Source: Candidatus Nanohalarchaeota archaeon (GTDB lineage Archaea > Nanohalarchaeota > Nanosalinia > Nanosalinales > Nanosalinaceae). Taken from it: DNA of 64,000 nucleotides. A program made the translations under genes and the position numbers. This document shows, in pieces, positions 8,554 to 56,618 of this stretch (within the stretch, counting starts at the first letter, position 1; every line of letters begins with the position of its first letter). Under the pieces are notes generated by a model. That model searched no databases. It saw nothing but the letters and a program-made list of their open reading frames with translations, and was not told the DNA's origin. The stretch lies in assembly GCA_022729235.1 (NCBI GenBank), contig JALDAJ010000001.1, forward strand, positions 672,001 to 736,000. Direction: 5' to 3'.

Positions 8554-8729
8554 GGGTATCTATTCGTGCCAAGAGTTGTAAACCATCTGTTCGCACCGAC
8601 GACTATGTCTATGTAATACAAGACTTGCTATATGCTCGATAAATCTGGTATATGTAATACATAGTCTTTTTTCGTAATACGAAATAAGTTATTTAGGAGG
8701 TTATAGCCTGAAATGTATTACAAAAAACT

Positions 8730-8996
8730 AGTGGTTCCCGGGGGTGGACGCCTCTCCGCGACCGGTTTTCCCGGCACGACCTCGGGTCCGCCACCCTCCG
8801 AACATCCGCCACGACGCTTAGGGCTGCTCCCGCCAGGGTCTGACCCGGTTCACGCCACGACGCATCCCGGAGGACGGACCGTCGACAGCCGAAGTCCAGG
8901 AATCGTGCCACGGGGAGAACACCGCTCCCCGGTTTTCGGCTCCTGCATGGAGAGGATTTCAGGTTACAGGCGACCCCGAACCGCCCAGCCTACCAT
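8730..8996 (-). ncRNA. ffs: Archaeal SRP (7S) RNA
   Basis: 5' GGTAGGCTGGGCGGTTCGGGGTCGCCTGTAACC Alu-domain pattern; helix 8 GGGTCAGACCC-TGGC-GGGAGCAGCCC with the SRP54-binding CAG/AGCAG motif. Confidence 0.92.
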
Positions 8997-9106
8997 TCAG
9001 GAATTACTTCTGGAAATGTTAAAAGGAGAGGTGGTTAATTCGATTGTTAGGCAGGTTTCGAACAGAATAAACTGGTTTTTAAAGTGAATCTTTTCGAAAA
9101 TGATGT

Positions 9107-28464: not shown

Positions 28465-28578
28465 ATGCTGGCGCTGGGTTCGAAACTGCGAGGCAGTTTC
28501 TGTACCATAAGAAAATCTATGATTTTCGAGGATTTGAACCCGAAGCTCGCCGTATCGGGAGCTTCTCTCATCAAATCC
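28465..28578. repeat. Split duplicate of the tRNA-Ser 3' end with three inserted hairpins
   Basis: ATGCTGGCGCTGGG (28465) and GGATTTGAACCC (28530) copy tRNA positions 28595-28618; hairpins at 28481, 28510, 28541. Confidence 0.8.
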
Positions 28579-28595
28579 GCAGTTTAGGCGTGAAA

Positions 28596-28684
28596 CGCCG
28601 GCGCTGGGATTTGAACCCAGGAGGGCCGTCACAGCCCAGCAGATCTCGAATCTGCCGCGTTCAACCAGACTCCGCCACGCCGGC
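28596..28684 (-). tRNA. tRNA-Ser(CGA)
   Basis: GCCGGCG acceptor, GCAGA-TT-CGA-GA-TCTGC, long variable arm, G73. Confidence 0.95.
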
Positions 28685-28800
28685 AGAAACTTCTGGAAGT
28701 TTCATCACCAGAAACTGCGTTCCGACTTCGCCTCCAGCAGCTTTCAGAATTAGGAGCTGTCGTGAAGCTTTTATTTAGTTGAGTTCCCGTTATCTGGTTT

Positions 28801-36466: not shown

Positions 36467-36573
36467 CTGTGAAGAGAACCCCGCTTAAATAAAATATGGG
36501 TTATTGCAGTCTAACACAGTTGATTTGAGGCAATGATGGGTTTAGAACAGTGTAAAAGGAAAAGTAAAAGTAG

Positions 36574-36688
36574 TCTGGCAGCGTCCCGAGCCTTCCGCCG
36601 GTAAGGCAGTACTACTCGGATCGCTTGGGGACTTTACTTCCGTGTTCGGAATGGGTACGGGTGTTGCCCCCCCGCTATGGCCGCCAGT
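36574..36688 (-). rRNA. rrf: 5S rRNA (stand-alone)
   Basis: CTGGCGGCCATAGC...CACCCGTACCCATTCCGAACACGGAAGTAAAG...AGTAGTACT...GCTGCCAG. Confidence 0.95.
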
Positions 36689-40090: not shown

Positions 40091-42334
40091 TCAGAGCTCG
40101 ATTTTTCTTAGCCTGTTAGAGTTCGTGACCACCGAGATACTTGAAGTAGCCATAGCTATCTCCGCGATTACAGGGTGGAGAAGTCCTGCGAACGCAACTG
40201 GTATCGCCAGGACGTTGTAGACGAACGCCCAGAACAGGTTCTCCTTTATCTTCGTGAAAATTGCGTCTGAAAGTTTGAACGCCTTCACGACAGCGGTCAG
40301 GTCGCCCTTTACAAGCGTCACATCAGCGGTTTCAATCGCGATGTCTGTCCCGGTCCCGATAGCGATGCCGACATTCGCCTGCTTGAGAGCGGGCGCATCG
40401 TTTATCCCGTCGCCGACCATCGCCACGTTCCTGCCCTCGCCCTGTAACTCCCTGACTTTCTCGATCTTGTCCTCGGGAAGCACTTCCGCCATCACGTTCT
40501 CGATACCTACTCTATCTGCTATCGCCTCCGCGGTCTTCTCGTTGTCCCCGGTTATCATCCAGACCTCGAAGCCCTCATCACTGAGGTATTCAACTGCCTC
40601 AGCAGAGTCTTCTTTCAACGTGTCCGCGACAGCGATGACTCCGAGAACGTTTTCCTCGTCAGCGACAAACATCGCGGTCTTGCCCTCCGCTTCCAGTTCC
40701 TCCGCGATTTCCCCAAATGCGGACTCGGTTCCGAACTTGTCCATCAGCTTCCTGTTCCCGATGAGGTACGTTTCGCCGCCGATGTCTGCCTTCACGCCTT
40801 TCCCGGTAAAGCTCTCGAACTCCGAAATCTCTCTGAGTTCTAGTTCTTTTTCTTCCGCTCTCTCGACTATCGCCTGCCCGAGCGGGTGCTCACTTCCTTT
40901 CTCCACGGACGCGGCGATTTCCAGGAGTTTTTCTTTCTCCATATCGGTCTCGATGTCGGTGACCTCGGGCTCGCCATGGGTTATAGTCCCGGTTTTGTCG
41001 AGTATGACTGCGTCGAGTTTTCTCATGGTCTGGATGGCTTCACCGTCTCTGAATATGACTCCGTTCTCCGCCGCCTTACCGGTACCCACCATCAACGCCG
41101 TTGGAGTCGCCAGCCCGAGGGCGCATGGGCACGCGATTACGAGCACTGCTACGAGCACGAAAATCGCCTGCGTTAAAGGATCCGCGGCGGGACTTACCCA
41201 GGGGAGCCACCCGCCGATATTCACCGCGAGCTGTGAGAAGAACTCGGGGAAAAAGTACCAGAGAGTGGCTGCAGTAAATGCTGTAAGTATAACTACCGGG
41301 ACGAAGTAGGAGGTCACGCGGTCGGCGAACGCCTGGATAGGGACCTTGGTTCCCTGAGCCTCCTCTACGAGGTCGACGACCTGCGAGAAGAAGGTGTCCT
41401 CCCCGACTTTTGTTGCCTCCATCTTGATGCGCCCGGTCTGGTTGACGGTCGACCCTATCACCTCGTCACCTTCCTGTTTCGACACGGGCTCGCTTTCACC
41501 TGTCGCCATCGACTCGTCCACGCTGGACTCGCCCTCTACTATCTCGCCGTCAACAGGGATTTTCTCGCCGGGTTTCACGACCAGGGTGTCGCCAACTTCT
41601 ACTTTTTCGACAGGCACCTCTTTTTCTTCCCCATCGACTATTTTCCGGGCGGTCTCCGCCTGTACGGACATCAGTTTCTCTATTGCCTCTGACGCCCGAC
41701 CTTTTGCCTTATTTTCAACGTATTTTCCGGTCAGGTGGAACGCCATTATCATCGCGCCTATCGCGGCGTAGTTCTGCAACGGCATGAAGAACACGAGCAC
41801 GCCTGTAATAAACGCGACGGATGTACCCATGGTTATCAGGGTGTCCATGTTCGCGTTGAGGTGTCTTGCAGCATTTATCGATGCTCTGTGAACAGGTTTT
41901 CCGAGCCAGAAAACGACGGGTATCGATGCGAGAAGCATCAGGAGGTCCATCTGCGTGTGCGTCATACCGATGTCAATAAGGTCCCACATCGCTACAATCA
42001 TGAAGACTGCGAGCGGGACCGTGATTATCCATGCATAGAGCATCCGGCTGTAGCTGTAGTCGGTCTCAACTGCCGAGTGACTGCTGTGTTCATGACTTTC
42101 GTGTCCTTCCTCTTCCCTGACGCTGTAGCCGGCGCTCTCAACTGCTTCAACCAAATCGCTGTACCCTGTTTCTTCAGAATGTTCTATATGCGCCTTCCCG
42201 CTTGCGTAGTTGACACTGACTTCTTCCACGCCTTCAACGCTGGAAAGGCTTTTCTCGATGCTGGATACGCAGGACGCGCAGTGCATCCCTTCTATGTTGA
42301 GTTTGGTTTTCTCAGTCGCTTCAGAGTCTTTCAT
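40091..42334 (-). CDS. copA: Copper-translocating P1B-type ATPase
   Basis: GMHCASC HMA domain, [26 protein letters not shown]. Confidence 0.95.
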
Positions 42335-43923: not shown

Positions 43924-44070
43924 CTTGGTCACCCGTGATGTGGCTGTCTGCCGCATTAAATAGGCATTACTGTGGTACAGTGTTACTGTCAAAGTCGGAA
44001 AATCTAGAAATTTATTTGGAAACTCGGAACGTTTTCTGGGCATATCAAATCTGTGGAGAGGAAACTTCGT

Positions 44071-44144
44071 TCCCGACCCCCCGATTTGAACGGGGGACAA
44101 GTCGCTCTACAGGCGACCGCTCTGCCAGACTGAGCTAGGTCGGG
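44071..44144 (-). tRNA. tRNA-Tyr(GTA)
   Basis: C1-G72 CCCGACC acceptor, GTCGC-CT-GTA-GA-GCGAC. Confidence 0.95.
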
Positions 44145-44220
44145 AAATGGCTTTCAGGCGTGATCGACCGGTCAGACCAGAAACCTGTATGGTTTCGACC
44201 TGAGCTAGGTCGGGAAATGG
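44130..44220. repeat. 21-bp direct repeat of the tRNA-Tyr 5' end flanking a hairpin
   Basis: CTGAGCTAGGTCGGGAAATGG at 44130-44150 and 44200-44220. Confidence 0.9.
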
Positions 44221-44253
44221 TTTCCGACAATGTCAAGGTAGAAGGTCAAGTTT

Positions 44254-49329: not shown

Positions 49330-49588
49330 TATTGAGAAGGAAAGACAGGACTACGGAAACTTCCCTGGAGAAAAATTCATCGAGGTGTCCCGGAACAAAG
49401 CTATACAGGATGACGGCACTGAAAACTCGTTCATACAGATCTCCACCGGGTATTACGATGAGGTGGGAGACGCCGGGTACAAGAAAAGGTTCACCGTACC
49501 GACCGACGAAAAAGCAGTCGAACACATAGTGGAAAAACTACCGGAAATCTTCGAAAAAGAACAGGAAGCACGGGAAGAAGCAGAATAG
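49313..49588 (+). CDS. Conserved small archaeal protein (possibly PC4/Pur-like nucleic-acid binder)
   Basis: MVEFETI...FIEVSR...FIQIS.GY...FTVP; the fold assignment is inference. Confidence 0.65.
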   Translation: MVEFETIEKERQDYGNFPGEKFIEVSRNKAIQDDGTENSFIQISTGYYDEVGDAGYKKRFTVPTDEKAVEHIVEKLPEIFEKEQEAREEAE

Positions 49589-49784
49589 GGCTTGAAGACA
49601 GGAAAAATAGGCTCATAAAGAGCCGGGATCAACAAGTCCCGGAACTCCTAGAAAGCTTCAGAGAAGCTTTCCTGAGCAGGGTCTCGGATACATCTCACAA
49701 ATGCATCGACGACCTTACCATAAACAACCGACTACAACCTTAAATAACAAGCCAGGGACTAGGTCCGTACACAGATAATAGGCT

Positions 49785-49952
49785 AGCCCCCGGTGGGATT
49801 TGAACCCACGGCTTATCCCTAGCTTGCTTCGCGCTTTTTATCCGGCATCCTGTTGGAAGCCGGACTCGAAACTCTGCGAGTTTCTGCGCCTCGCAACTTG
49901 TGAGTTGCTCGGTTACAAGGGGATCGCTCTAGCCAGACTGAGCCACGGAGGC
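49785..49952 (-). tRNA. tRNA-Thr(TGT) with 93-nt intron (49821-49913) at 37/38
   Basis: GCCTCCG acceptor; ATCCC-CT-TGT-A[intron]A-GGGAT; CTTG/CAAG BHB central helix. Confidence 0.9.
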
Positions 49953-50186
49953 GTCGATGTCTGATAGAGAATCTGGTTCTGTTAACAGTTAAATACTTGG
50001 TTGGCTGCTATGTCTCATAGAATTATTGCTCAGTCTTCTCTTTCCTTTTCTACAAGGTCTTTTATCTTCATGAGGAGGTAGAAGATGAGGAGGTATCTCC
50101 AGTATTTCCTAAGTGTTCTCCTTACGCCCATGCCGGTTAAAGAACCGTCACAGTTTATCAGGACTGCTTCATTCCTGTGAAGAGAT

Positions 50187-50483
50187 TTATTCTGTCACGT
50201 CGCTTGGATCGGGCGCCCTGTTCTTGACCTCTTTCTTCGCTGCATCCTTGATTCTTTTGATATTGCTGCTTCTTTCGCATTCCGGGCATTCGATCCACCA
50301 TGGCCGAGAACCTAGTTCTTCGCTTCTTTCGAATTCGTGTCCGCAGAACGGGCAGGTCATCTGGTAGTGGAATGTCTCGTTGTCGTATGAGAACATCTTG
50401 ATCTGCCCTGTTTCCTCGCCGTCATCGTTTTCCAGTTTGCGGTTGGTAACGTACTCGGCTTTATCGTAGTCGATCTCTTTCAT
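50187..50483 (-). CDS. Zinc-ribbon protein
   Basis: CPFC...CPEC. Confidence 0.8.
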   Translation of the reverse strand: MKEIDYDKAEYVTNRKLENDDGEETGQIKMFSYDNETFHYQMTCPFCGHEFERSEELGSRPWWIECPECERSSNIKRIKDAAKKEVKNRAPDPSDVTE

Positions 50484-50528
50484 CTTTCTATCAATACCTT
50501 GACAACTGTAAGTTTTAAGTTTTTGATT

Positions 50529-51008
50529 TCAGCCCACCATTTTACGGTATACGGGTTCTACGTCTTCCTCATCCAGGTCTATCTCTGTCTTTTCAAGTCC
50601 TTCCGCATCAAACAGGGCTTTCCCTATCTCCAGAAAGTCTTTTGGTTCATCGAACTTGAGATGCTTGATGTCCGGGTTGTACCGTTTCAGATTCCTGTAA
50701 TCCCATTCTCGTTCCGTGTTCAGGATGCGCAGGTCGTACCCCATGACTGTTGCGAGAAACGCCCGAGCCGCGTCCTCCTTCGATTCAATCCGCGCGTAAG
50801 CCTGCTCGTCCACAGGGCTTCCGTTCAACCCCTCTCGTTCTTCTCCATTGACTTTGTAGATCTCCACCCCAGGAGTTCTGCCCAGGATTTCGGGGTCGTC
50901 TGTCTCCACCACGAGTTTTCCCGAGTCTTCCCGGATATCCTCGACTTTCTTTTCAAGGTTCTCTTTGAGTTTCTCGATTTTCTCTGTAGGCGTAACCTCG
51001 ATTTCCAT
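50529..51008 (-). CDS. Hypothetical protein
   Basis: Acidic ORF with typical composition. Confidence 0.7.
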   Translation of the reverse strand: MEIEVTPTEKIEKLKENLEKKVEDIREDSGKLVVETDDPEILGRTPGVEIYKVNGEEREGLNGSPVDEQAYARIESKEDAARAFLATVMGYDLRILNTEREWDYRNLKRYNPDIKHLKFDEPKDFLEIGKALFDAEGLEKTEIDLDEEDVEPVYRKMVG

Positions 51009-51062
51009 ATGATTTGTTACTTGCAAGGAAAGCTTTTATGTAACGGCTCTAAACGCGTTAAC

Positions 51063-51473
51063 ATGAAGCTGTTCGACAGGATATCCGAGGACGGGGAGGA
51101 GGTAGAAATTGAATCCTCTGCGGCGATAGAGGAAAGCAGTAGTTCACAGGAGGAAAGTCGTTTGAGGAGAGAGGTCGAGGACGAAGTCGTGGACGGGTCA
51201 GGTTCTACCGGTACAGGTTCTTCCAGCTCTTCAGACTCCAGTTTGCCGGGTGTGAGTTACGGTGATTCAGGTTCTTCAAGCAGTTCGTCTTCCCGTTCTA
51301 CTAAGTCTAGCTCCTCATCAACTTCCAGCTCGCTTCCAGGGATGTCGAGCGGAGGCTCAACTACGTCTTCCCACAGTATTGACCTGGAGGATGTACATGA
51401 ACAGAATAAGGAGATAATAGAACTACTTAAAGACATAAAGTCCGAGGTAGGTGGTAACGATAAGCTACTTTGA
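51063..51473 (+). CDS. Ser-rich low-complexity protein
   Basis: Start at ATG 51063; Ser tracts; C-terminal EQNKEIIELL helix. Confidence 0.7.
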   Translation: MKLFDRISEDGEEVEIESSAAIEESSSSQEESRLRREVEDEVVDGSGSTGTGSSSSSDSSLPGVSYGDSGSSSSSSSRSTKSSSSSTSSSLPGMSSGGSTTSSHSIDLEDVHEQNKEIIELLKDIKSEVGGNDKLL

Positions 51474-52005
51474 TAACGTGAAGGATTCTGTGAAGGACAA
51501 GGATTCACGAGACAAGGCCAACTTCGAGACCCTGAGGAAGGCGGCTGAAGAATCATCGGAGAGCCCTGAAAACAAGGAAGGTGATGATACCGGTATAGAA
51601 GTCCTGGAGGAAGGGCTTTCCAAGGAAGCGCCTGGGAAAACGCAGAAGGAGAAAAAGCGGGAGCAGAGGAATCAGCAGGGTGATGGGGAGGAAGATGTCA
51701 ACGATTCCGGGAACCTGTTACCTTCCAGCTCAAGCGGTAGCTCTTCCACGGCTTCGAAAACAGGTAGTTCAGAAGCGGGTTCGATGTCCGGTTCCGGTGG
51801 TTCTTCCAGCTCAGGCATCGGTTCTTCAGGCAGTTCTCCTGGAGGTTCTGCAGTCGACCAGATGTCCGGTAACAAGCCGGGTAAAAGTTCTGGAACCAGC
51901 AATGACTCTTCTAGTGAGAACAGTTCCTCTCTAGAGGAGAAGCTTGACACCATCATCGAGCAGAACGAAAGGATGATAAGGATACTTGAGAGCTTCGGGA
52001 GCTAG
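51451..52005 (+). CDS. Ser/Gly-rich low-complexity protein
   Basis: Ser/Gly tracts; C-terminal EQNERMIRIL helix. Confidence 0.7.
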   Translation: MVTISYFDNVKDSVKDKDSRDKANFETLRKAAEESSESPENKEGDDTGIEVLEEGLSKEAPGKTQKEKKREQRNQQGDGEEDVNDSGNLLPSSSSGSSSTASKTGSSEAGSMSGSGGSSSSGIGSSGSSPGGSAVDQMSGNKPGKSSGTSNDSSSENSSSLEEKLDTIIEQNERMIRILESFGS

Positions 52006-52015
52006 CCTAAGTTTT

Positions 52016-52291
52016 CTAGACTACCTTGACAGGTATCTTTCTGCGTCCTTCGTCGGTGCTCTCCATTTCTTCGAGTAAGCTGATTTCAAGTTCGAGCTGT
52101 TTCCGTGTGTTGGATTCGAAGAACTCCATCTCCAGCTGGTTGTCCTTGTTTGGTTCGATTTCGACTTCTTCTCTTCCTTTAAAGGAGAGTCCTACCTCGC
52201 CTTCTCTTATCTTTTCTGCAAAGTTTTCAAGGAAGTTAGCAAGTTCTTCATTGTTGAATTCGAAGTCGAGTTCTACTTCTTCGGTTGACAT
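52016..52291 (-). CDS. Amphi-Trp-like domain protein
   Basis: ELANFLENFAEKI..G...LELEI. Confidence 0.7.
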   Translation of the reverse strand: MSTEEVELDFEFNNEELANFLENFAEKIREGEVGLSFKGREEVEIEPNKDNQLEMEFFESNTRKQLELEISLLEEMESTDEGRRKIPVKVV

Positions 52292-52333
52292 ATATTGAAT
52301 CTTCTCGTGGGAACTGTTTTATTTTTTAAGGTC

Positions 52334-52612
52334 TTATTCTCCGTCTTCACCGGTTTTCTGTTCCAGCTTCCTTGCGAGGAAGTGGTCTTTCTCTTCGAGT
52401 TCTCTTATCGACTCGATTGCGAACAGGTAACCTGTACCTATCATCACCAGTCCGAGAACTGCGGGAGCCAGGTCAATCAGACCTACTAGCGGTAGTATGT
52501 TGGATATAACGAGTAGTACTCCCAGCGTGAACAGGGCGAAAGATACTGCTATCTCCTGGTTTATGCTCATCTTTTTGAGTCCGAATCGGTCTTTTTCTGT
52601 CATTCGAATCAC
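52334..52612 (-). CDS. Small membrane protein in the oap operon
   Basis: Two TM segments, directly downstream of oapC. Confidence 0.7.
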   Translation of the reverse strand: MIRMTEKDRFGLKKMSINQEIAVSFALFTLGVLLVISNILPLVGLIDLAPAVLGLVMIGTGYLFAIESIRELEEKDHFLARKLEQKTGEDGE

Positions 52613-52620
52613 CGAGAGCG

Positions 52621-53004
52621 TTATTCTAGCTCCTCTAGGTCGAGATTAGCATCTTCCGGGTTGAATGCGGAAGGTAGCTGTATGTAGTAGTTTCCTTCTT
52701 CCCTCCTTATAACTAATGGTATTTCTTTGAGTAGGCGGGAGATGTTTATCTGGTATACGCCTTCTTCCTTGATGCTTATCGAGTCAAGGTCGAACTCGAA
52801 CTTGATATTGGCTCTTTCTTCTACTCCTTCCTTCGCCATCTCCCTGATTTCGGAAGTGACCTCTTCTTTTTCTTCCTGCGACATCTCTTCTGTCTCCCCA
52901 TCTTTCTCGTACATAAAGAGCGAGGAGCCGCAGTCGCAGCCGCTTATCAGTTCATCGCTCCCGTCATCATACATCTCTCCGCAGTTCATACATCTATGGG
53001 GCAT
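52621..53004 (-). CDS. oapC: OapC zinc-ribbon protein (DUF2072)
   Basis: MPHRCMNCG...SGCDCGS..F; ESI/DSI...G.Y.I. Confidence 0.88.
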   Translation of the reverse strand: MPHRCMNCGEMYDDGSDELISGCDCGSSLFMYEKDGETEEMSQEEKEEVTSEIREMAKEGVEERANIKFEFDLDSISIKEEGVYQINISRLLKEIPLVIRREEGNYYIQLPSAFNPEDANLDLEELE

Positions 53005-53008
53005 GATT

Positions 53009-53392
53009 TCACTCCTCCATCTTTGCCAGGAATGAAACGGTATCTGGTTCTTCCTTGATTTTTTCCATGACGCGGGAGTTGCCTACTATCGTTAATCCCT
53101 GTCGGTACTGCTCGTTGAGAACTCTCTTGTAGAGGATGCTTTTTGCCTTTTCAATCCTGGAATCGCCTCCATCGAACCCCATGAATTCCACGCCCGGGAA
53201 ATCCTCGTCTGCCTTTTCTACAGAGTTCTCGATAAGTTTTCGTTTTTCTTCCGGAGTCCATCCTTCTTCGAGTACCAGCACGGAGTTGTCTTTAACCTTC
53301 TCAAGAACAAATTCCAGCTTGTCTGTGAAGGCTTTCTCGTCTGAAAGCCTCTCCTTCGAGAGAAATTCTATTGTGACCCCGTCATCTGTCAT
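53009..53392 (-). CDS. oapB: OapB (DUF2073)
   Basis: VLVLEEGWTPEE, FPGVE, LTIVG. Confidence 0.88.
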   Translation of the reverse strand: MTDDGVTIEFLSKERLSDEKAFTDKLEFVLEKVKDNSVLVLEEGWTPEEKRKLIENSVEKADEDFPGVEFMGFDGGDSRIEKAKSILYKRVLNEQYRQGLTIVGNSRVMEKIKEEPDTVSFLAKMEE

Positions 53393-54019
53393 CTAACTCA
53401 ACCTTTCGACTATTTCCTCATAAAGTTTGTCAATATTATTGCCTTCTTTCGCAGATATCTCTATTACAGGGTGCTGCGGGAAAGCATCGCGCACTCTTTG
53501 TGCATCTGCTTCTTCGAGGTCTATCTTGTTCGCTACCACCAGTATAGGTATGTCCTTTGCCTCCAGGTTACCGATAATTGTGACGTTAACCTGGGTGTAC
53601 GGATCCTCTGTAGCATCAAAAATCACCAGGCACGCGTCCACGTTGTCAAGGTACTTTATCGCCTCAACGATTCCTTTCGTTGCCTCTTTGGCGCGACCCT
53701 TCGCATCGTCCTCCTCTATACCGTGTTCAGTGAAATCCTTGAAGTCTACATTCGTTGAAATACCAGGCATGTCAAGCAGGTTCATCTCCACCGATTGACC
53801 ATCTGCCTCTATCTCGACTTTTTCTTTTTTCTCTACGATACGGGTCTCGTGAGGTACCTCGGAAACATTACTCATCTCTTCCCCGGTTATATCAAGAGAT
53901 ATCTGGTTCGCGAGAGTAGACTTTCCGGCGTTAGGAGGGCCATATATGCCTATAGAGAGGTCATCTTTTTCCGAATCACTGAAGAGACTGTTGAGAAGTT
54001 CCCTGAGCCTTTTGATCAT
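53393..54019 (-). CDS. oapA: Era-like GTPase OapA
   Basis: GIYGPPNAGKSTLAN, PHETR, DMPG, ANKID. Confidence 0.92.
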   Translation of the reverse strand: MIKRLRELLNSLFSDSEKDDLSIGIYGPPNAGKSTLANQISLDITGEEMSNVSEVPHETRIVEKKEKVEIEADGQSVEMNLLDMPGISTNVDFKDFTEHGIEEDDAKGRAKEATKGIVEAIKYLDNVDACLVIFDATEDPYTQVNVTIIGNLEAKDIPILVVANKIDLEEADAQRVRDAFPQHPVIEISAKEGNNIDKLYEEIVERLS

Positions 54020-54118
54020 TTTGACACCAGCTAATGGTAAATCAGGTCTTTAAGTATAAAAACTATTTCCTCTCTTTCACCCGGGAATAATAAAGAAATG
54101 ACACCTAAAAATGGCAAC

Positions 54119-54556
54119 ATGAAGACTGAAAAAGGCGTGATAATTGTCGCGTACAAGCGGAAGAACGCTCCCCGCTACGTTGTCCTTAAGAGGAAGAAGA
54201 ACTGGGAAGGCTGGGAAACTCCTAAAGGACACCTGGAGGATGAGGGCTACGAGGAAACGGTTAAGGAGGAGATGCAGGAGGAGGCAGGCATCTCTGGGGA
54301 CGAGATACTCGCTATAGAGGATATGGAGGAGACAGTCTTGTGGGAGTACAGTCAGGATGGTGAAGATTTCCGGAAAGAGTACCGTGCATTTCTAGTAGAA
54401 GTAGATGAGGGCGCACATGTTGATGTGTCGAGAAATCCCTGCGATGAGCACGAACACGGCTACTTCTTCAGTTTCCGTGACGCCAGCGAGATGGTGACTC
54501 ATGATAACAACCGCGAGCTACTGGAGAAGGCTCATGAGATGGTAACTGGAGAGTGA
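54119..54556 (+). CDS. NUDIX hydrolase (Ap4A hydrolase-like)
   Basis: WETPKGHLE...EEMQEEAGI. Confidence 0.85.
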   Translation: MKTEKGVIIVAYKRKNAPRYVVLKRKKNWEGWETPKGHLEDEGYEETVKEEMQEEAGISGDEILAIEDMEETVLWEYSQDGEDFRKEYRAFLVEVDEGAHVDVSRNPCDEHEHGYFFSFRDASEMVTHDNNRELLEKAHEMVTGE

Positions 54557-54594
54557 GCTGAACCGATTTAAACATGGCGTGTATTCTAACAGGT

Positions 54595-54846
54595 ATGACA
54601 CAGCCAGACGAGATGCTGGAAATTTACCAGTTTGAAGGATGTCCTTACTGCTCAAAAGTCAGACAGAAGATGACCGAACTAGGTCTCGACTTCATCGCGA
54701 AGAGTGTTGATCCTCACGGTGACAGGCAGCGTGTAAAAGAGGTCAGTGATCAGACAGGTGTCCCTGTCCTCGTAGACCCGAACACCGATACAGTCATGCC
54801 AGAGAGCGACGACATCGTGGAGTATCTGGAAAAACAGTACGAATAA
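54595..54846 (+). CDS. Glutaredoxin/GST-N-like protein
   Basis: GCPYCSKV, VPVLVD, ESDDIVEYL. Confidence 0.9.
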   Translation: MTQPDEMLEIYQFEGCPYCSKVRQKMTELGLDFIAKSVDPHGDRQRVKEVSDQTGVPVLVDPNTDTVMPESDDIVEYLEKQYE

Positions 54847-54877
54847 CTTTTAATTTCTTATTCCGCAGTAGCAACGT

Positions 54878-55324
54878 ATGCCTGATAGTAGACTCTTGAA
54901 AGAACTCGATATCTCTCCGGCTGAACTGGCTGAGATGACAGAAAGCGAATATCGGAACACTCTTCTTAGACATGATTATCCTTTAACCGAGCCTGTAATA
55001 GTATCTGTTGAGGACTCTATAGCAAGGGAAAGAGAGAAGCTTGAAAGTTTTTGTGCGCCGTATTCAGGTGCGGAAAAATGGCTTTGGATAGGTGAAGAGA
55101 TACTTCCTCGCTGGGCAGAAGTTCTCTCCGAACTCGATGAAAGAGTAAATTACGCGGATTCAAGTGGACTAGAGACAGAATACAAAGGAGTATTGTCCCC
55201 GCGGCTCAAGAAGGCTACAGGACTGATGAAGCGTCTGGAGGCAAATCCGGTAGACTATGATATATCGGAGTTTGTGGATAGACTCCGTGGAATGGAAAAC
55301 ACATATGAAAGGAAATTAAAGTAG
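54878..55324 (+). CDS. Hypothetical protein
   Basis: 148-aa ATG ORF. Confidence 0.6.
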   Translation: MPDSRLLKELDISPAELAEMTESEYRNTLLRHDYPLTEPVIVSVEDSIAREREKLESFCAPYSGAEKWLWIGEEILPRWAEVLSELDERVNYADSSGLETEYKGVLSPRLKKATGLMKRLEANPVDYDISEFVDRLRGMENTYERKLK

Positions 55325-55351
55325 TTCTGTCTCTACTGAAGGACTTGGAAA

Positions 55352-55487
55352 TGGACCGGCCCAGATTTGAACTGGGGATCTCCACCTGTCTGAATTCCTC
55401 CGCATAGCGGAGATTTCAGATAATAGAAGCTGGTTAAGGCTTCGAGTCTATCAGGGTGGTGCTATAACCAAGCTAAGCCACCGGTCC
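55352..55487 (-). tRNA. tRNA-Ile(GAT) with 61-nt intron (55388-55448) at 37/38
   Basis: GGACCGG acceptor; CCACC-CT-GAT-A[intron]A-GGTGG; CTGA/TCAG BHB helix. Confidence 0.9.
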
Positions 55488-55582
55488 GTGCTAGCTAGTA
55501 ATAGTTGAATGCTTGGAAAGTATTTTTAATGCATTGGCAGAGAGTCCGTGATTTTTATTTGAGGATTTAAAATACTGTTTCT

Positions 55583-56053
55583 GTGGGACTTGAAGAATTA
55601 GAAGAAGATATCAGGCAACTTGAGCAGGATCTTGAAAGTCTTGTTCCCCAGAAGAAGGCAGCTTCGGCTAAACTGTTTCTAGATCAGTTCATGCCTCTCG
55701 CTATACTGATGCTAACTTTGATGATTGCCTTCCATATTTTCATCCCAGTAAGCGATAGCATGGCTGTCGCTGTCAGCTACATGAACGTGGCTATCCTGTT
55801 CTTCTTCAGCGCCCGGTTCACGCTTGCTTTCATGCTGGCGGATTCGCATAAAGGATTCCTCCGTGAACACTGGTTTGACGCGCTGCTTGTTCTACCAGCT
55901 TTTGCATTAGTCAAGGATATACGTCTGCTGCTTGCCCTAGAGTCCAGGACAGAGGAACGCGCTGTTATAGGCACTATTTTCGCGAGGAATACGACGGTTG
56001 CCAGCCAGTTAACCAAGATAATTACCTGGATCAGAAGAATTCTCAGGTTCTAA
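55583..56053 (+). CDS. Membrane protein (ion-channel S1-S4-like)
   Basis: TM helices, FLREHWFDALLVLP. Confidence 0.6.
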   Translation: MGLEELEEDIRQLEQDLESLVPQKKAASAKLFLDQFMPLAILMLTLMIAFHIFIPVSDSMAVAVSYMNVAILFFFSARFTLAFMLADSHKGFLREHWFDALLVLPAFALVKDIRLLLALESRTEERAVIGTIFARNTTVASQLTKIITWIRRILRF

Positions 56054-56056
56054 AAA

Positions 56057-56240
56057 CATATCTCTGATATGGGTCCAACGGGATTTGAGACGAAAACAAG
56101 TTTTCTTAGTCAAATCACGTTTAACCAGCACGAAGTGATGGGCCCAACGGGATTTGAATTCGAAGAAGCAAGTTCTTCTGCAATCAAATCCCGGGAGAAA
56201 GCATATCTTTGATATGGGCCCAACGGGATTTGAACCCGCG
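56057..56240. repeat. Tandem copies of the tRNA-Lys 3' end separated by unique hairpins
   Basis: ATGGG(T/C)CCAACGGGATTTGA at 56069, 56138 and 56214. Confidence 0.92.
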
Positions 56241-56349
56241 ACGCCCGGCTTTCTTTGAAGCTTGGCTGACGCCTTGCTTCTAGGTCCTCGTCCCTTGCGG
56301 GACTTGAGGCTTAAAAGGCCGGTGCTCTGCCAGACTGAGCTATGGGCCC
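56215..56349 (-). tRNA. tRNA-Lys(TTT) with 61-nt intron (56251-56311) at 37/38
   Basis: GGGCCCA acceptor; CCGGC-CT-TTT-A[intron]A-GCCGG; CTTT/AAAG BHB helix. Confidence 0.9.
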
Positions 56350-56402
56350 ATGCGTATGGGTAATTGTTGTAGAATACCTGAGGTTTTTATACTGTCCGCC
56401 GA

Positions 56403-56618
56403 TTACACGGTTTCCTGTTCGAAGTCGCCGTACTGGATGTTCTGTATCGCGTGGTACGGGATGAACATGTGTTCGGACTGCACTTCCTGTACAAGTTCTT
56501 CTTCGTTGAATATCCAGGGGTTTTCGATTTCCACTCCGTTATCTACTCTATCTACCTGGTCTTCGTCTTCCAGGAGGAAGTCTCCGGCATCTGTTAGAAC
56601 TATGGCTGAGAATTTCAT
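56403..56618 (-). CDS. Small hypothetical protein
   Basis: 71 aa, operonic with rpl37e; FIPY.AIQNI. Confidence 0.65.
   Translation of the reverse strand: MKFSAIVLTDAGDFLLEDEDQVDRVDNGVEIENPWIFNEEELVQEVQSEHMFIPYHAIQNIQYGDFEQETV

Follow-up and report, generated by a model that had tools for sequence, protein, structure and literature searches.

Long hairpin-rich introns in three tRNA genes of a Candidatus Nanohalarchaeota archaeon and their variability among relatives

Introduction

How do long introns arise in archaeal tRNA genes, and what allows them to persist there? The question is raised by a stretch of 64,000 nucleotides (nt) from the small genome of a salt-lake Candidatus Nanohalarchaeota archaeon (GenBank assembly GCA_022729235.1, contig JALDAJ010000001.1, positions 672,001–736,000; hereafter the window), in which the genes for tRNA-Thr(UGU), tRNA-Ile(GAU) and tRNA-Lys(UUU) are each interrupted by an intron composed of several hairpins. 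According to the accessible part of a 2026 preprint, the origin of protein-spliced archaeal tRNA introns is "the central open problem" (10.64898/2026.10.13.758758), and in the available portion of a 2014 review the way in which introns transpose is described as unknown (PMC4090602). The initial annotation of the window, made from the sequence alone, proposed that the three introns consist of the same hairpin elements that flank other tRNA genes, and that they either act as safe havens for these elements or were created by them.

We analyzed the window together with the genome it belongs to (G000, a single contig of 1.03 Mb with 48.5% G+C) and genomes of its relatives. Coordinates without a prefix are positions in the window, whereas G000:C1 coordinates refer to the whole contig. 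The reading best supported by the data, to which we assign a probability of roughly 55%, is that these are spliced bulge-helix-bulge (BHB) introns without guide function, filled with hairpin cassettes that turn over at the DNA level and for which the introns act as safe havens.

Results

Three tRNA genes of the window are interrupted at position 37/38

tRNA genes were called with the Rfam model RF00005 (threshold 29 bits) and with ARAGORN in default and intron mode. In default mode ARAGORN reported only three intron-less tRNAs in the window and missed the Thr, Ile and Lys genes. The Rfam model detected six tRNAs, three of them with a large insertion 3' of the anticodon:

49785–49952, minus strand: tRNA-Thr(UGU), Rfam 48.2 bits; exon 1 49952–49914, intron 49913–49821 (93 nt), exon 2 49820–49785
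55352–55487, minus strand: tRNA-Ile(GAU), Rfam 51.5 bits; exon 1 55487–55449, intron 55448–55388 (61 nt), exon 2 55387–55352
56215–56349, minus strand: tRNA-Lys(UUU), Rfam 55.4 bits; exon 1 56349–56312, intron 56311–56251 (61 nt), exon 2 56250–56215

From the 95, 62 and 62 nt left unaligned in the Rfam alignments we obtained introns of 93, 61 and 61 nt at position 37/38, just as the initial annotation had placed them. ARAGORN in intron mode gave the same lengths for Thr and Ile and mis-set the Lys intron to 40 nt. Joining the exons in silico resulted in cloverleaves of 75 (Thr), 75 (Ile) and 74 nt (Lys).

BHB-like junctions, already noted in the initial annotation, could form at every intron. 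Four nucleotides at the 3' end of the intron are complementary to positions 32–35 (Thr CUUG/CAAG, Ile CUGA/UCAG, Lys CUUU/AAAG), and after this helix two further intron nucleotides together with N38 form a potential 3-nt bulge. All three introns hence have potential 3-nt bulges at both splice sites with a 4-bp helix between them. For Thr the BHB fold nearly reaches the minimum free energy (−43.6 vs −45.5 kcal/mol), for Ile it lies 4 kcal/mol above a competing internal hairpin (−23.4 vs −27.5 kcal/mol), and in Lys the 4-bp helix is weak and absent from the computed fold. Since the outer helix past the 5' bulge is a multi-hairpin junction instead of a simple helix in all three cases, "BHB-like" is the apt wording.

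The following elements are located within the introns:

49862–49913, minus strand: two-hairpin module in the 5' part of the Thr intron, containing the hairpin A-GAAACUC…GAGUUUC-G at 49867–49886
55425–55444, plus strand, i.e. opposite to the tRNA: GAA-type hairpin of the Ile intron (match of the hairpin census at contig positions 727425–727444)
56257–56309, minus strand: cassette of the Lys intron (Family A), composed of the bulged stem P1 (CCUC-AA-GUCCC…GGGAC-GAGG) and the hairpin P2 (A-GAAGC…GCUUC-A)

At the place of the GAA-type hairpin the orthologous Ile intron of relative G005 contains TCGAAACC…GGTTTCTG. The proposal that all three introns are made of the same elements had to be given up: they belong to three different families whose sole common feature is a generic A-GAA…UUC-G hairpin, present in inverted orientation in Ile.

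We considered whether the introns could be box C/D or H/ACA guides in the style of the euryarchaeal tRNA-Trp intron. No C box (TGATGA within one mismatch) is present in the Thr, Ile or Lys intron, CTGA occurs a single time across the three, in Ile, and an Rfam search at E ≤ 1 over 49500–56600 returned tRNA and no other RNA family. The same threshold applied to 20 tRNA loci of G000 gave nothing credible except tRNA. The initial annotation was thus right that a C/D box pair is lacking. An H/ACA identity was rejected, as in our reading of the folds the internal loops leave no room for a pseudouridylation pocket. What speaks for guides comes from other introns and from inspection by eye. The introns of tRNA-Trp (G000:C1:921928-922103) and tRNA-Met (92052-92328) show C/D-like boxes (GAUGAGG, CUGA, CGAUGAUUA) and also hold a GAA-type hairpin. 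Lys(UUU) introns of G011 and of other families (76–258 nt) contain GAUGA, CUGA and a stretch complementary to the anticodon loop, which, by the spacing rule for such guides, would be compatible with directing ribose methylation at the wobble base. For the three introns of the window the guide explanation is largely refuted and we consider it very improbable.

An even smaller chance is left to the introns being products of coincidence, of misassembly or of pseudogenes. The assembly of G000 is derived from a metagenome, which could raise such a suspicion. However, one 51-kb contig of the source run matches the stretch throughout with 0 differences, the exons form perfect cloverleaves, intron-bearing orthologs exist in many genomes and the motif statistics described below are far above those of shuffled sequences. 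This explanation is therefore regarded as refuted. The three DNA metagenome runs compared with the stretch also contained short contigs of foreign organisms joining tRNA-Lys exons with other or shorter inserts; they are too weak and were not used.

Splicing enzymes encoded in the genome

G000 encodes a single splicing endonuclease of 181 amino acids (aa) (PF01974, 96 bits). Among solved structures, the N. equitans alpha subunit and the M. jannaschii enzyme are closest to it. A short insert in the protein aligns with the N. equitans alpha subunit, while the M. kandleri enzyme is without it. In the accessible part of a 2018 study such a loop in single-unit enzymes of DPANN archaea is linked to more disrupted tRNA genes (PMC5829648), and the insert of G000 probably corresponds to this loop. 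The ligase RtcB is present as well (PF01139, 465 bits, G000:C1:586267-588984). Its open frame of 966 aa contains a gap of ~430 aa, the size of an intein, between two Pfam-matched parts.

The Lys intron belongs to a family found in different tRNAs

Seven introns of G000 share the architecture of the Lys intron (Family A), namely those of tRNA-Lys(UUU), Gln(UUG), Leu(UAA), Arg(UCU), Arg(GCG), Arg(UCG) and Thr(CGU). BLAST gave cross-matches among the seven, and they follow the same plan: 2–5 nt, P1 (CCUC-AA-stem-loop-stem-GAGG), P2 (A-GAAR…YUUC-G) and a host-specific 3' end. From 13 copies we built a covariance model (R1) and searched G000 and 40 relatives. In G000 it detected exactly these seven copies, every one a tRNA intron, with a score of 72 bits for the Lys intron at 56243–56324; a hidden Markov model (HMM) using sequence only regained all seven. 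The relatives contain 0–10 copies per genome. Matches were found in 20 of 24 genomes of the same family, in 7/7 and 3/7 genomes of two other families and in 0/2 of the remaining two families. No copy was found in the nearly complete genomes G016, G018 and G019.

Aligned to R1, 54 copies fell into 15 anticodon classes. For 46 of them the nearest neighbor resides in a different tRNA (41 in another genome, 5 in the same genome). For the other 8 it is the same tRNA, compared to a mean of 4.9 after shuffling of labels (at least 8 in 286 of 2000 shuffles). The sequence therefore follows neither host tRNA nor genome. Such scatter could result from movement or from strong constraint acting on short sequences.

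The stems are conserved through compensatory changes. Among the 54 copies 94.9% of the stem cells are paired, compared to 76.6% after shuffling and 41–59% when the partners were slid, and 220 cells have changed on both sides compared to 59 after shuffling, in an alignment (A2) that was fitted to R1 and thus favors the structure. The 4-bp BHB helix is paired in 90% across these introns.

Introns and related elements recur within the genome

ARAGORN detected introns of 30–203 nt in 20 of the 35 tRNA genes of G000. One gene labeled tRNA-Ala(AGC) by the program (G000:C1:285340-285525) is tRNA-Asn(GUU) with a 112-nt intron, of which ~96 nt are in common with the 203-nt intron of tRNA-Met. A further intron of 57 nt interrupts a tRNA-Ile with anticodon UAU (G000:C1:992897-993029), an anticodon that is rare in archaea.

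We searched all 20 introns against the G000 genome by BLAST. The introns of tRNA-Cys and tRNA-Thr(GGU) are 92% identical over 64 nt and those of tRNA-Met and tRNA-Asn 79% over 96 nt. The module of the Thr(UGU) intron matches an element 35 nt downstream of tRNA-Gly(GCC) (41335–41389 in G000; 82% over 55 nt, E = 3e-6), so that the suspected link between introns and flanking elements is indeed found for Thr. The same module is 77% identical to a segment covering the 5' exon and intron of tRNA-Lys(UUU) in G008. The Ser(GGA) intron matches a stretch within the RNase P RNA gene (E = 1.6e-4). A free-standing copy of the Cys/Thr(GGU) type is located directly after the stop codon of an open reading frame (ORF) (G000:C1:761756-761830; 72% over 75 nt), and several relatives have this intron type in tRNA-Thr, tRNA-Ile and tRNA-Lys(CUU). 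By the same search the Ile and Lys introns of the window had no match within the G000 genome. Considering all comparisons, similar introns in tRNAs of other identity exist for Lys (Family A) and Thr (the Lys intron of G008), while for Ile only orthologs were found.

Presence, size and type of the introns vary among relatives

We compared tRNA-Thr(UGU) in 15 genomes. As the ARAGORN labels were wrong in G001, G014 and G022, the anticodon was read from the sequence. The size of the intron was as follows:

No intron: G006, G011, G017, G018
14 nt: G021
15 nt: G019
about 25 nt: G022
69 nt, a Family A cassette: G005
77 nt: G001
84 nt: G002
93 nt: G000
126 nt: G015
about 135 nt: G014
143 nt: G009
426 nt: G016

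The content of these introns is unrelated between genomes; constant are the last few nucleotides, which pair with the anticodon loop. For the other two tRNAs the distribution was:

tRNA-Lys(UUU), Family A intron: 7 genera
tRNA-Lys(UUU), 98-nt intron homologous to the Thr intron of G000: G008
tRNA-Lys(UUU), longer introns with the GAUGA and CUGA motifs: G011 and other families
tRNA-Lys(UUU), no intron: G007, G013
tRNA-Ile(GAU), intron homologous to that of G000: G005, partly G011
tRNA-Ile(GAU), other intron types: six genomes
tRNA-Ile(GAU), no intron: G009, G013
tRNA-Ile(GAU), contiguous exon matches, from BLAST coordinates only: G002, G006

The polymorphism across the lineage for which the initial annotation had suggested to look thus exists, with lengths of 0–426 nt for Thr(UGU) and differences in presence and intron type for Lys and Ile. 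The introns are neither invariant, nor do those of the window encode recognizable guides.

An endonuclease family resides at tRNA genes of relatives

The 426-nt intron in tRNA-Thr(UGU) of G016 consists of an ORF of 133 aa, 24 further nucleotides and a 7-bp closing helix next to a canonical BHB. Its product belongs to Pfam family PF11645 (E = 6.6e-42) and also matches PDB entry 2ost ("Putative endonuclease"), which we take to be the tRNA-intron homing endonuclease I-Ssp6803I. As just 24 nt remain outside the ORF and the closing helix adjoins a canonical BHB, the intron is not a group I ribozyme.

PF11645 genes were detected in 5 of 41 genomes, and all five lie inside a tRNA gene or 48–129 nt upstream of one on the same strand:

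tRNA-Thr(UGU): G016 (within the intron), G021, and G019 (pseudogene with two stops)
tRNA-Asn(GUU): G006, G015

The tRNAs next to the free-standing genes of G021, G019, G006 and G015 have introns of 14, 15, 109 and 31 nt. In a wider scan restricted to one genome per species, a tRNA gene lies 15–440 nt from the endonuclease gene at 21 of 23 related loci; it is Thr(UGU), Asn(GUU), Asp(GUC) or Pro(UGG), and bacteria and haloarchaea are included. Haloarchaeal loci are often located beside tandem copies of tRNA-Asp. Partial tRNA copies were not found around the PF11645 genes.

This adjacency makes it likely that the family targets tRNA genes, and its enzymes would then cut the intron-less form. PF11645 provides a driver for inserts in the anticodon loop of Thr(UGU) as well as a reason for their selection; the hairpin cassettes are not explained by it. 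With the endonuclease gene in or upstream of Thr(UGU) in relatives, repair driven by the enzyme, in combination with the protection that any insert would give to the DNA of the anticodon loop, is a likely force behind the turnover at this tRNA. A homing-type enzyme as driver had not been foreseen in the initial annotation.

Hairpins are concentrated at tRNA loci

The motif GAAACT-N3-9-AGTTTC occurs three times in the window compared to 0.08 expected, and none of 100 shuffles reached three:

49868–49884: within the Thr intron
28482–28500: downstream of tRNA-Ser
28686–28703: directly upstream of tRNA-Ser

The likeness of the Thr hairpin to the one downstream of tRNA-Ser, pointed out in the initial annotation, is real at the level of the motif, whereas the copy upstream of tRNA-Tyr is a variant (GAAACC…GGTTTC). 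We then counted the more general motif A-GAA…TTC-G in the whole genome and in 10 genome shuffles:

Whole genome (1.03 Mb): 182 hairpins, shuffles ~54 (39–73 in the 10)
tRNA genes (4.25 kb): 8 hairpins, shuffle mean 0
Within 150 nt of tRNA genes (10.2 kb): 19 hairpins, shuffle mean 1.0
Other intergenic DNA (108 kb): 39 hairpins, shuffle mean 6.8
ORFs (905 kb): 116 hairpins, shuffle mean 46.4

The enrichment in and beside tRNA genes confirms a hairpin family at tRNA loci. Away from these loci no bias for strand or gene end was observed (13, 9, 8 and 8 hairpins in the four classes), and a role as terminators or elements of untranslated regions was rejected for this reason. Doublets are common there and show one fixed mutual orientation (7 pairs). 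Reading the GA-flanked hairpin as a kink-turn was also rejected, as of the bases flanking the stem only the preceding A and the following G are conserved.

Beside tRNAs the hairpins lie between the gene and a partial copy of the end of the same gene. An exact copy of the last 12–21 nt (T-loop to N73, without CCA) is present downstream of 11 of the 35 tRNAs and upstream of none (random windows 0.055); these copies begin in the T-loop. Conversely, the leader with the first 13–16 nt is copied exactly upstream of 4/35 tRNAs and downstream of none (random windows 0.005). Between the direct copies an inverted 3'-end copy of at least 8 nt was found for 9/35 tRNAs (random windows 0.69). Such direct-inverted-direct triplets could be relics of attachment sites or products of fold-back repair. 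In the window the flanking elements are:

56060–56214, minus strand: tRNA-Lys trailer with two tandem spacer elements, each with a hairpin and each followed by a tRNA 3'-end copy (T-loop to N73)
56138–56158 and 56069–56088: the 3'-end copies of tRNA-Lys
56161–56180: hairpin of the tRNA-Lys trailer, preceded by an inverted T-loop copy
28595–28685, minus strand: tRNA-Ser(CGA), with GAA-type hairpins upstream (28686–28703) and downstream (28482–28500, 28510–28528, 28541–28566)
44069–44145, minus strand: tRNA-Tyr(GUA) (locus 44069–44221), with a hairpin ahead at 44178–44197

The older spacer of the Lys trailer is common to G007, G001 and G004; the newer one is similar to the spacer that follows tRNA-Trp (79% by BLAST). 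At tRNA-Ser(CGA) a decayed copy of the T-arm and 3' end is broken by two hairpins. At tRNA-Tyr(GUA) the leader and the first 15–16 nt are copied exactly at 44200–44215 and adjoining bases. Outside the window, a partial copy of tRNA-Pro(UGG) (G000:C1:158746-158836), spanning the anticodon arm through the 3' end, lies about 800 nt downstream of this tRNA and has a two-hairpin doublet inserted in its T-arm. The mature 5' ends of tRNA-Ser(CGA) and tRNA-Val(GAC) are each directly adjoined by a hairpin with a UGAUGA-like motif in front of it (28686–28703 and G000:C1:91891-91950). Over 60 nt the tRNA-Val(GAC) leader shares 80% identity with the 3' part of the tRNA-Met intron.

These duplications bear on the possibility that introns and flanking hairpins are relics of viruses or plasmids which recombined with tRNA genes, an attachment site having carried a piece of tRNA, sometimes with an intron, and later deletions having left short spacers. 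A model of this kind has been proposed for Caldiarchaeum, as far as the accessible part of the source goes (PMC3293823). The polarity of the copies and the start of the 3' copies in the T-loop speak for it. Moreover, one of two tyrosine recombinase genes of G000 (G000:C1:862694-863212, a 472-aa open frame) is located ~700 nt downstream of tRNA-Thr(GGU), whose intron is the one 92% identical to that of Cys. Yet no distant repeat of the end of tRNA-Thr(GGU) was found, and there is no integrase near Thr(UGU), Ile or Lys. The spacers have a length of only ~40–110 nt and contain no genes of an element, and cassettes in RNase P RNA are left unexplained. Near-identical spacers occur at different tRNAs (Lys/Trp, Gly/Cys), each with its own tRNA-specific repeat, which could not be supplied by one attachment site. 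Finally, the inverted copies suggest fold-back or template-switch repair equally well. Taken together we consider an integrative origin improbable.

Related cassettes are inserted in RNase P RNA

The RNase P RNA gene of G000 (G000:C1:267625-268108, 484 nt) scored 79.8 bits, with the Rfam threshold at 84 bits. A 51-nt insert of two hairpins separates the 3' strand of P2 from the conserved ACAGAA. When 10 genera were aligned, G000, G012 and G011 had the insert, it was missing in G002, G003, G005, G006, G008 and G013, and G009 was ambiguous; G011 has a second cassette at another site. Against the Family A HMM the insert scores weakly (E = 0.14 genome-wide), for which reason we term it a related cassette. 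As no BHB is evident at these inserts, we read them as tolerated expansions.

Two further stable RNAs of the window were noted:

8729–8998, minus strand: archaeal signal recognition particle RNA (113.5 bits)
36573–36688, minus strand: 5S rRNA (75.9 bits)

Discussion

In the reading we prefer, the single-unit endonuclease would cut the BHB at 37/38 and RtcB would seal the exons. The intron would be a self-folding stem-loop cassette with A-GAAR…YUUC-G as recurring unit, to which the Lys family adds a bulged CCUC-AA-stem-GAGG in front. About 10 host-specific nucleotides at the intron ends would pair with the anticodon loop and present both splice sites, while the cassette supplies a helical platform past the 5' bulge. 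Because the cassette folds on itself, folding of the tRNA would remain undisturbed. On the DNA level the cassettes would form a lineage-wide pool of insertions, presumably free of cellular function, which are gained, lost, swapped and copied among tRNA genes, RNase P RNA, leaders and trailers. They would persist where RNA processing removes or tolerates them, and it is in this sense that introns could act as safe havens. Of the two ideas in the initial annotation the safe haven is the one best supported; hairpins may have given rise to introns or may simply have moved into existing ones.

Several observations weigh against this interpretation. No gene of G000 can be named as mover: Y1 transposase (PF01797, the enzyme of REP/RAYT and IS200/IS605-derived palindromes, with a control search positive in 6 genomes), Cas1 (PF01867, the integrase of casposon-type insertion at tRNA 3' ends, found in 3 of 41 relatives), reverse transcriptase and PF11645 endonuclease gave no match in G000, and among the 41 genomes no endonuclease gene was found at Ile or Lys. 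The cassettes show no terminal inverted repeats and no clear target duplications. The scatter of nearest neighbors may reflect short constrained sequences rather than transfer, and the A2 alignment is biased towards structure as mentioned. The Family A type of the Lys intron is common to 7 genera and hence not recent. The bases of the CCUC/GAGG and GAA/UUC stems are nearly invariant across genera and hosts; together with the spread over 7 genera this fits selection on the RNA better than neutral junk. All 54 Family A copies as well as the RNase P inserts are in sense orientation, a count that is biased for the introns as R1 includes the anticodon stem.

These points lead to the main rival, according to which the cassettes are functional RNA modules spread by selection, either binding a protein or acting, once excised, as stable circular RNAs, possibly in the role of processing chaperones, positioners of the endonuclease or regulators. 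The invariant stem bases favor it, all the more as upper stems and loops co-vary, and it would account for the architecture kept in the Lys intron of 7 genera, the uniform orientation and the hairpins abutting the mature 5' ends of tRNA-Ser and tRNA-Val. The guide intron of euryarchaeal tRNA-Trp is a precedent, going by the accessible part of the review (PMC4090602). On the other hand, copy numbers range from 0 to 10 per genome with none in the nearly complete G016, G018 and G019, the same tRNA is intron-less in close genera, hairpins off tRNA loci prefer neither strand nor gene end, the hairpin is inverted in the Ile intron, and no Rfam family matches. We give functional modules a real chance, though clearly not an even one.

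A combined scheme also appears possible, albeit one we put forward tentatively, in which BHB tRNA introns spread in two layers. PD-(D/E)XK homing endonucleases would cut intron-less tRNA genes in the DNA of the anticodon loop, driving in or selecting any insert at this site. Self-folding hairpin cassettes would then colonize the resulting mini-introns and tolerated sites in stable RNAs, e.g. RNase P RNA. The Thr, Ile and Lys introns of the window could be endonuclease-less end products of this cycle. If true, it would be the first concrete route for the gain of a BHB tRNA intron.

Comparison with known systems

The closest likeness is to the transposed BHB intron families of Thermoproteales (Fujishima et al. 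2010). As far as the accessible parts of the sources go (PMC4090602; 10.64898/2026.10.13.758758), there too similar introns occur within one genome in tRNAs of different identity, as in the 92% pair described here, and gain is deduced from close relatives. Differences are that the Thermoproteales introns occupy many positions, whereas all introns called here by ARAGORN are at 37/38 (using its anticodon-loop mode and Rfam only), that here short hairpin cassettes also occur in RNase P RNA, leaders, trailers and intergenic doublets, and that the introns reside in a genome of 1 Mb encoding a single-unit endonuclease. The euryarchaeal C/D guide intron of tRNA-Trp is likewise a long structured intron at 37/38; unlike it, the introns of the window have no C/D pair.

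With homing introns the lineage shares an anticodon-loop intron that encodes an endonuclease (PF11645, PD-(D/E)XK, in G016) next to intron-less alleles in sister genera. A bacterial tRNA-fMet group I intron encodes I-Ssp6803I. Mobile BHB introns of archaeal rRNA carry LAGLIDADG homing endonucleases according to the available part of the text (PMC6125680). In contrast, the three introns of the window have no reading frame and G000 has no PF11645 gene.

The free-standing endonuclease genes located 48–129 nt upstream of tRNAs with introns of 14–109 nt in G021, G019, G006 and G015 may be compared to "collaborative homing" in cyanophages, where a free-standing homing endonuclease reportedly lies beside an intron that interrupts its target. 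Here, though, the introns are of the protein-spliced BHB type, and cleavage specificity and protection are presumed. REP, REPIN and MITE elements, i.e. short repetitive palindromic or miniature transposable sequences, resemble the hairpins in being short, with conserved closing bases, mostly intergenic, arranged in doublets of fixed orientation and present in many diverged copies. They differ in that here no Y1 (RAYT) transposase and no terminal inverted repeats were found and copies are concentrated at tRNA loci and inside stable RNA genes.

In the searched literature, whose scope ended at subscription journals and supplementary files, we found no prior description of such tRNA introns in Nanohaloarchaea in the accessible text, and, judged by titles and the openings of abstracts, no report of an archaeal endonuclease of the I-Ssp6803I type or of one in a BHB tRNA intron. 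Some of these introns may already appear in the tRNA tables of earlier DPANN surveys. Known kinds are protein-spliced tRNA introns, intron families across tRNAs and homing endonucleases in archaeal introns. As far as our searches reach, the novelty lies in how the cassettes are built, in their occurrence in RNase P RNA and tRNA flanks, and in the tRNA intron of relatives that encodes an endonuclease. One lineage thus offers cassettes reused across tRNA identities, related cassettes inserted in RNase P RNA, polar duplications of tRNA ends, and empty, mini, cassette-filled and endonuclease-filled states of the same site, a combination that permits tests of DNA-level intron gain and of whether introns shield tRNA genes from enzymes targeting them.

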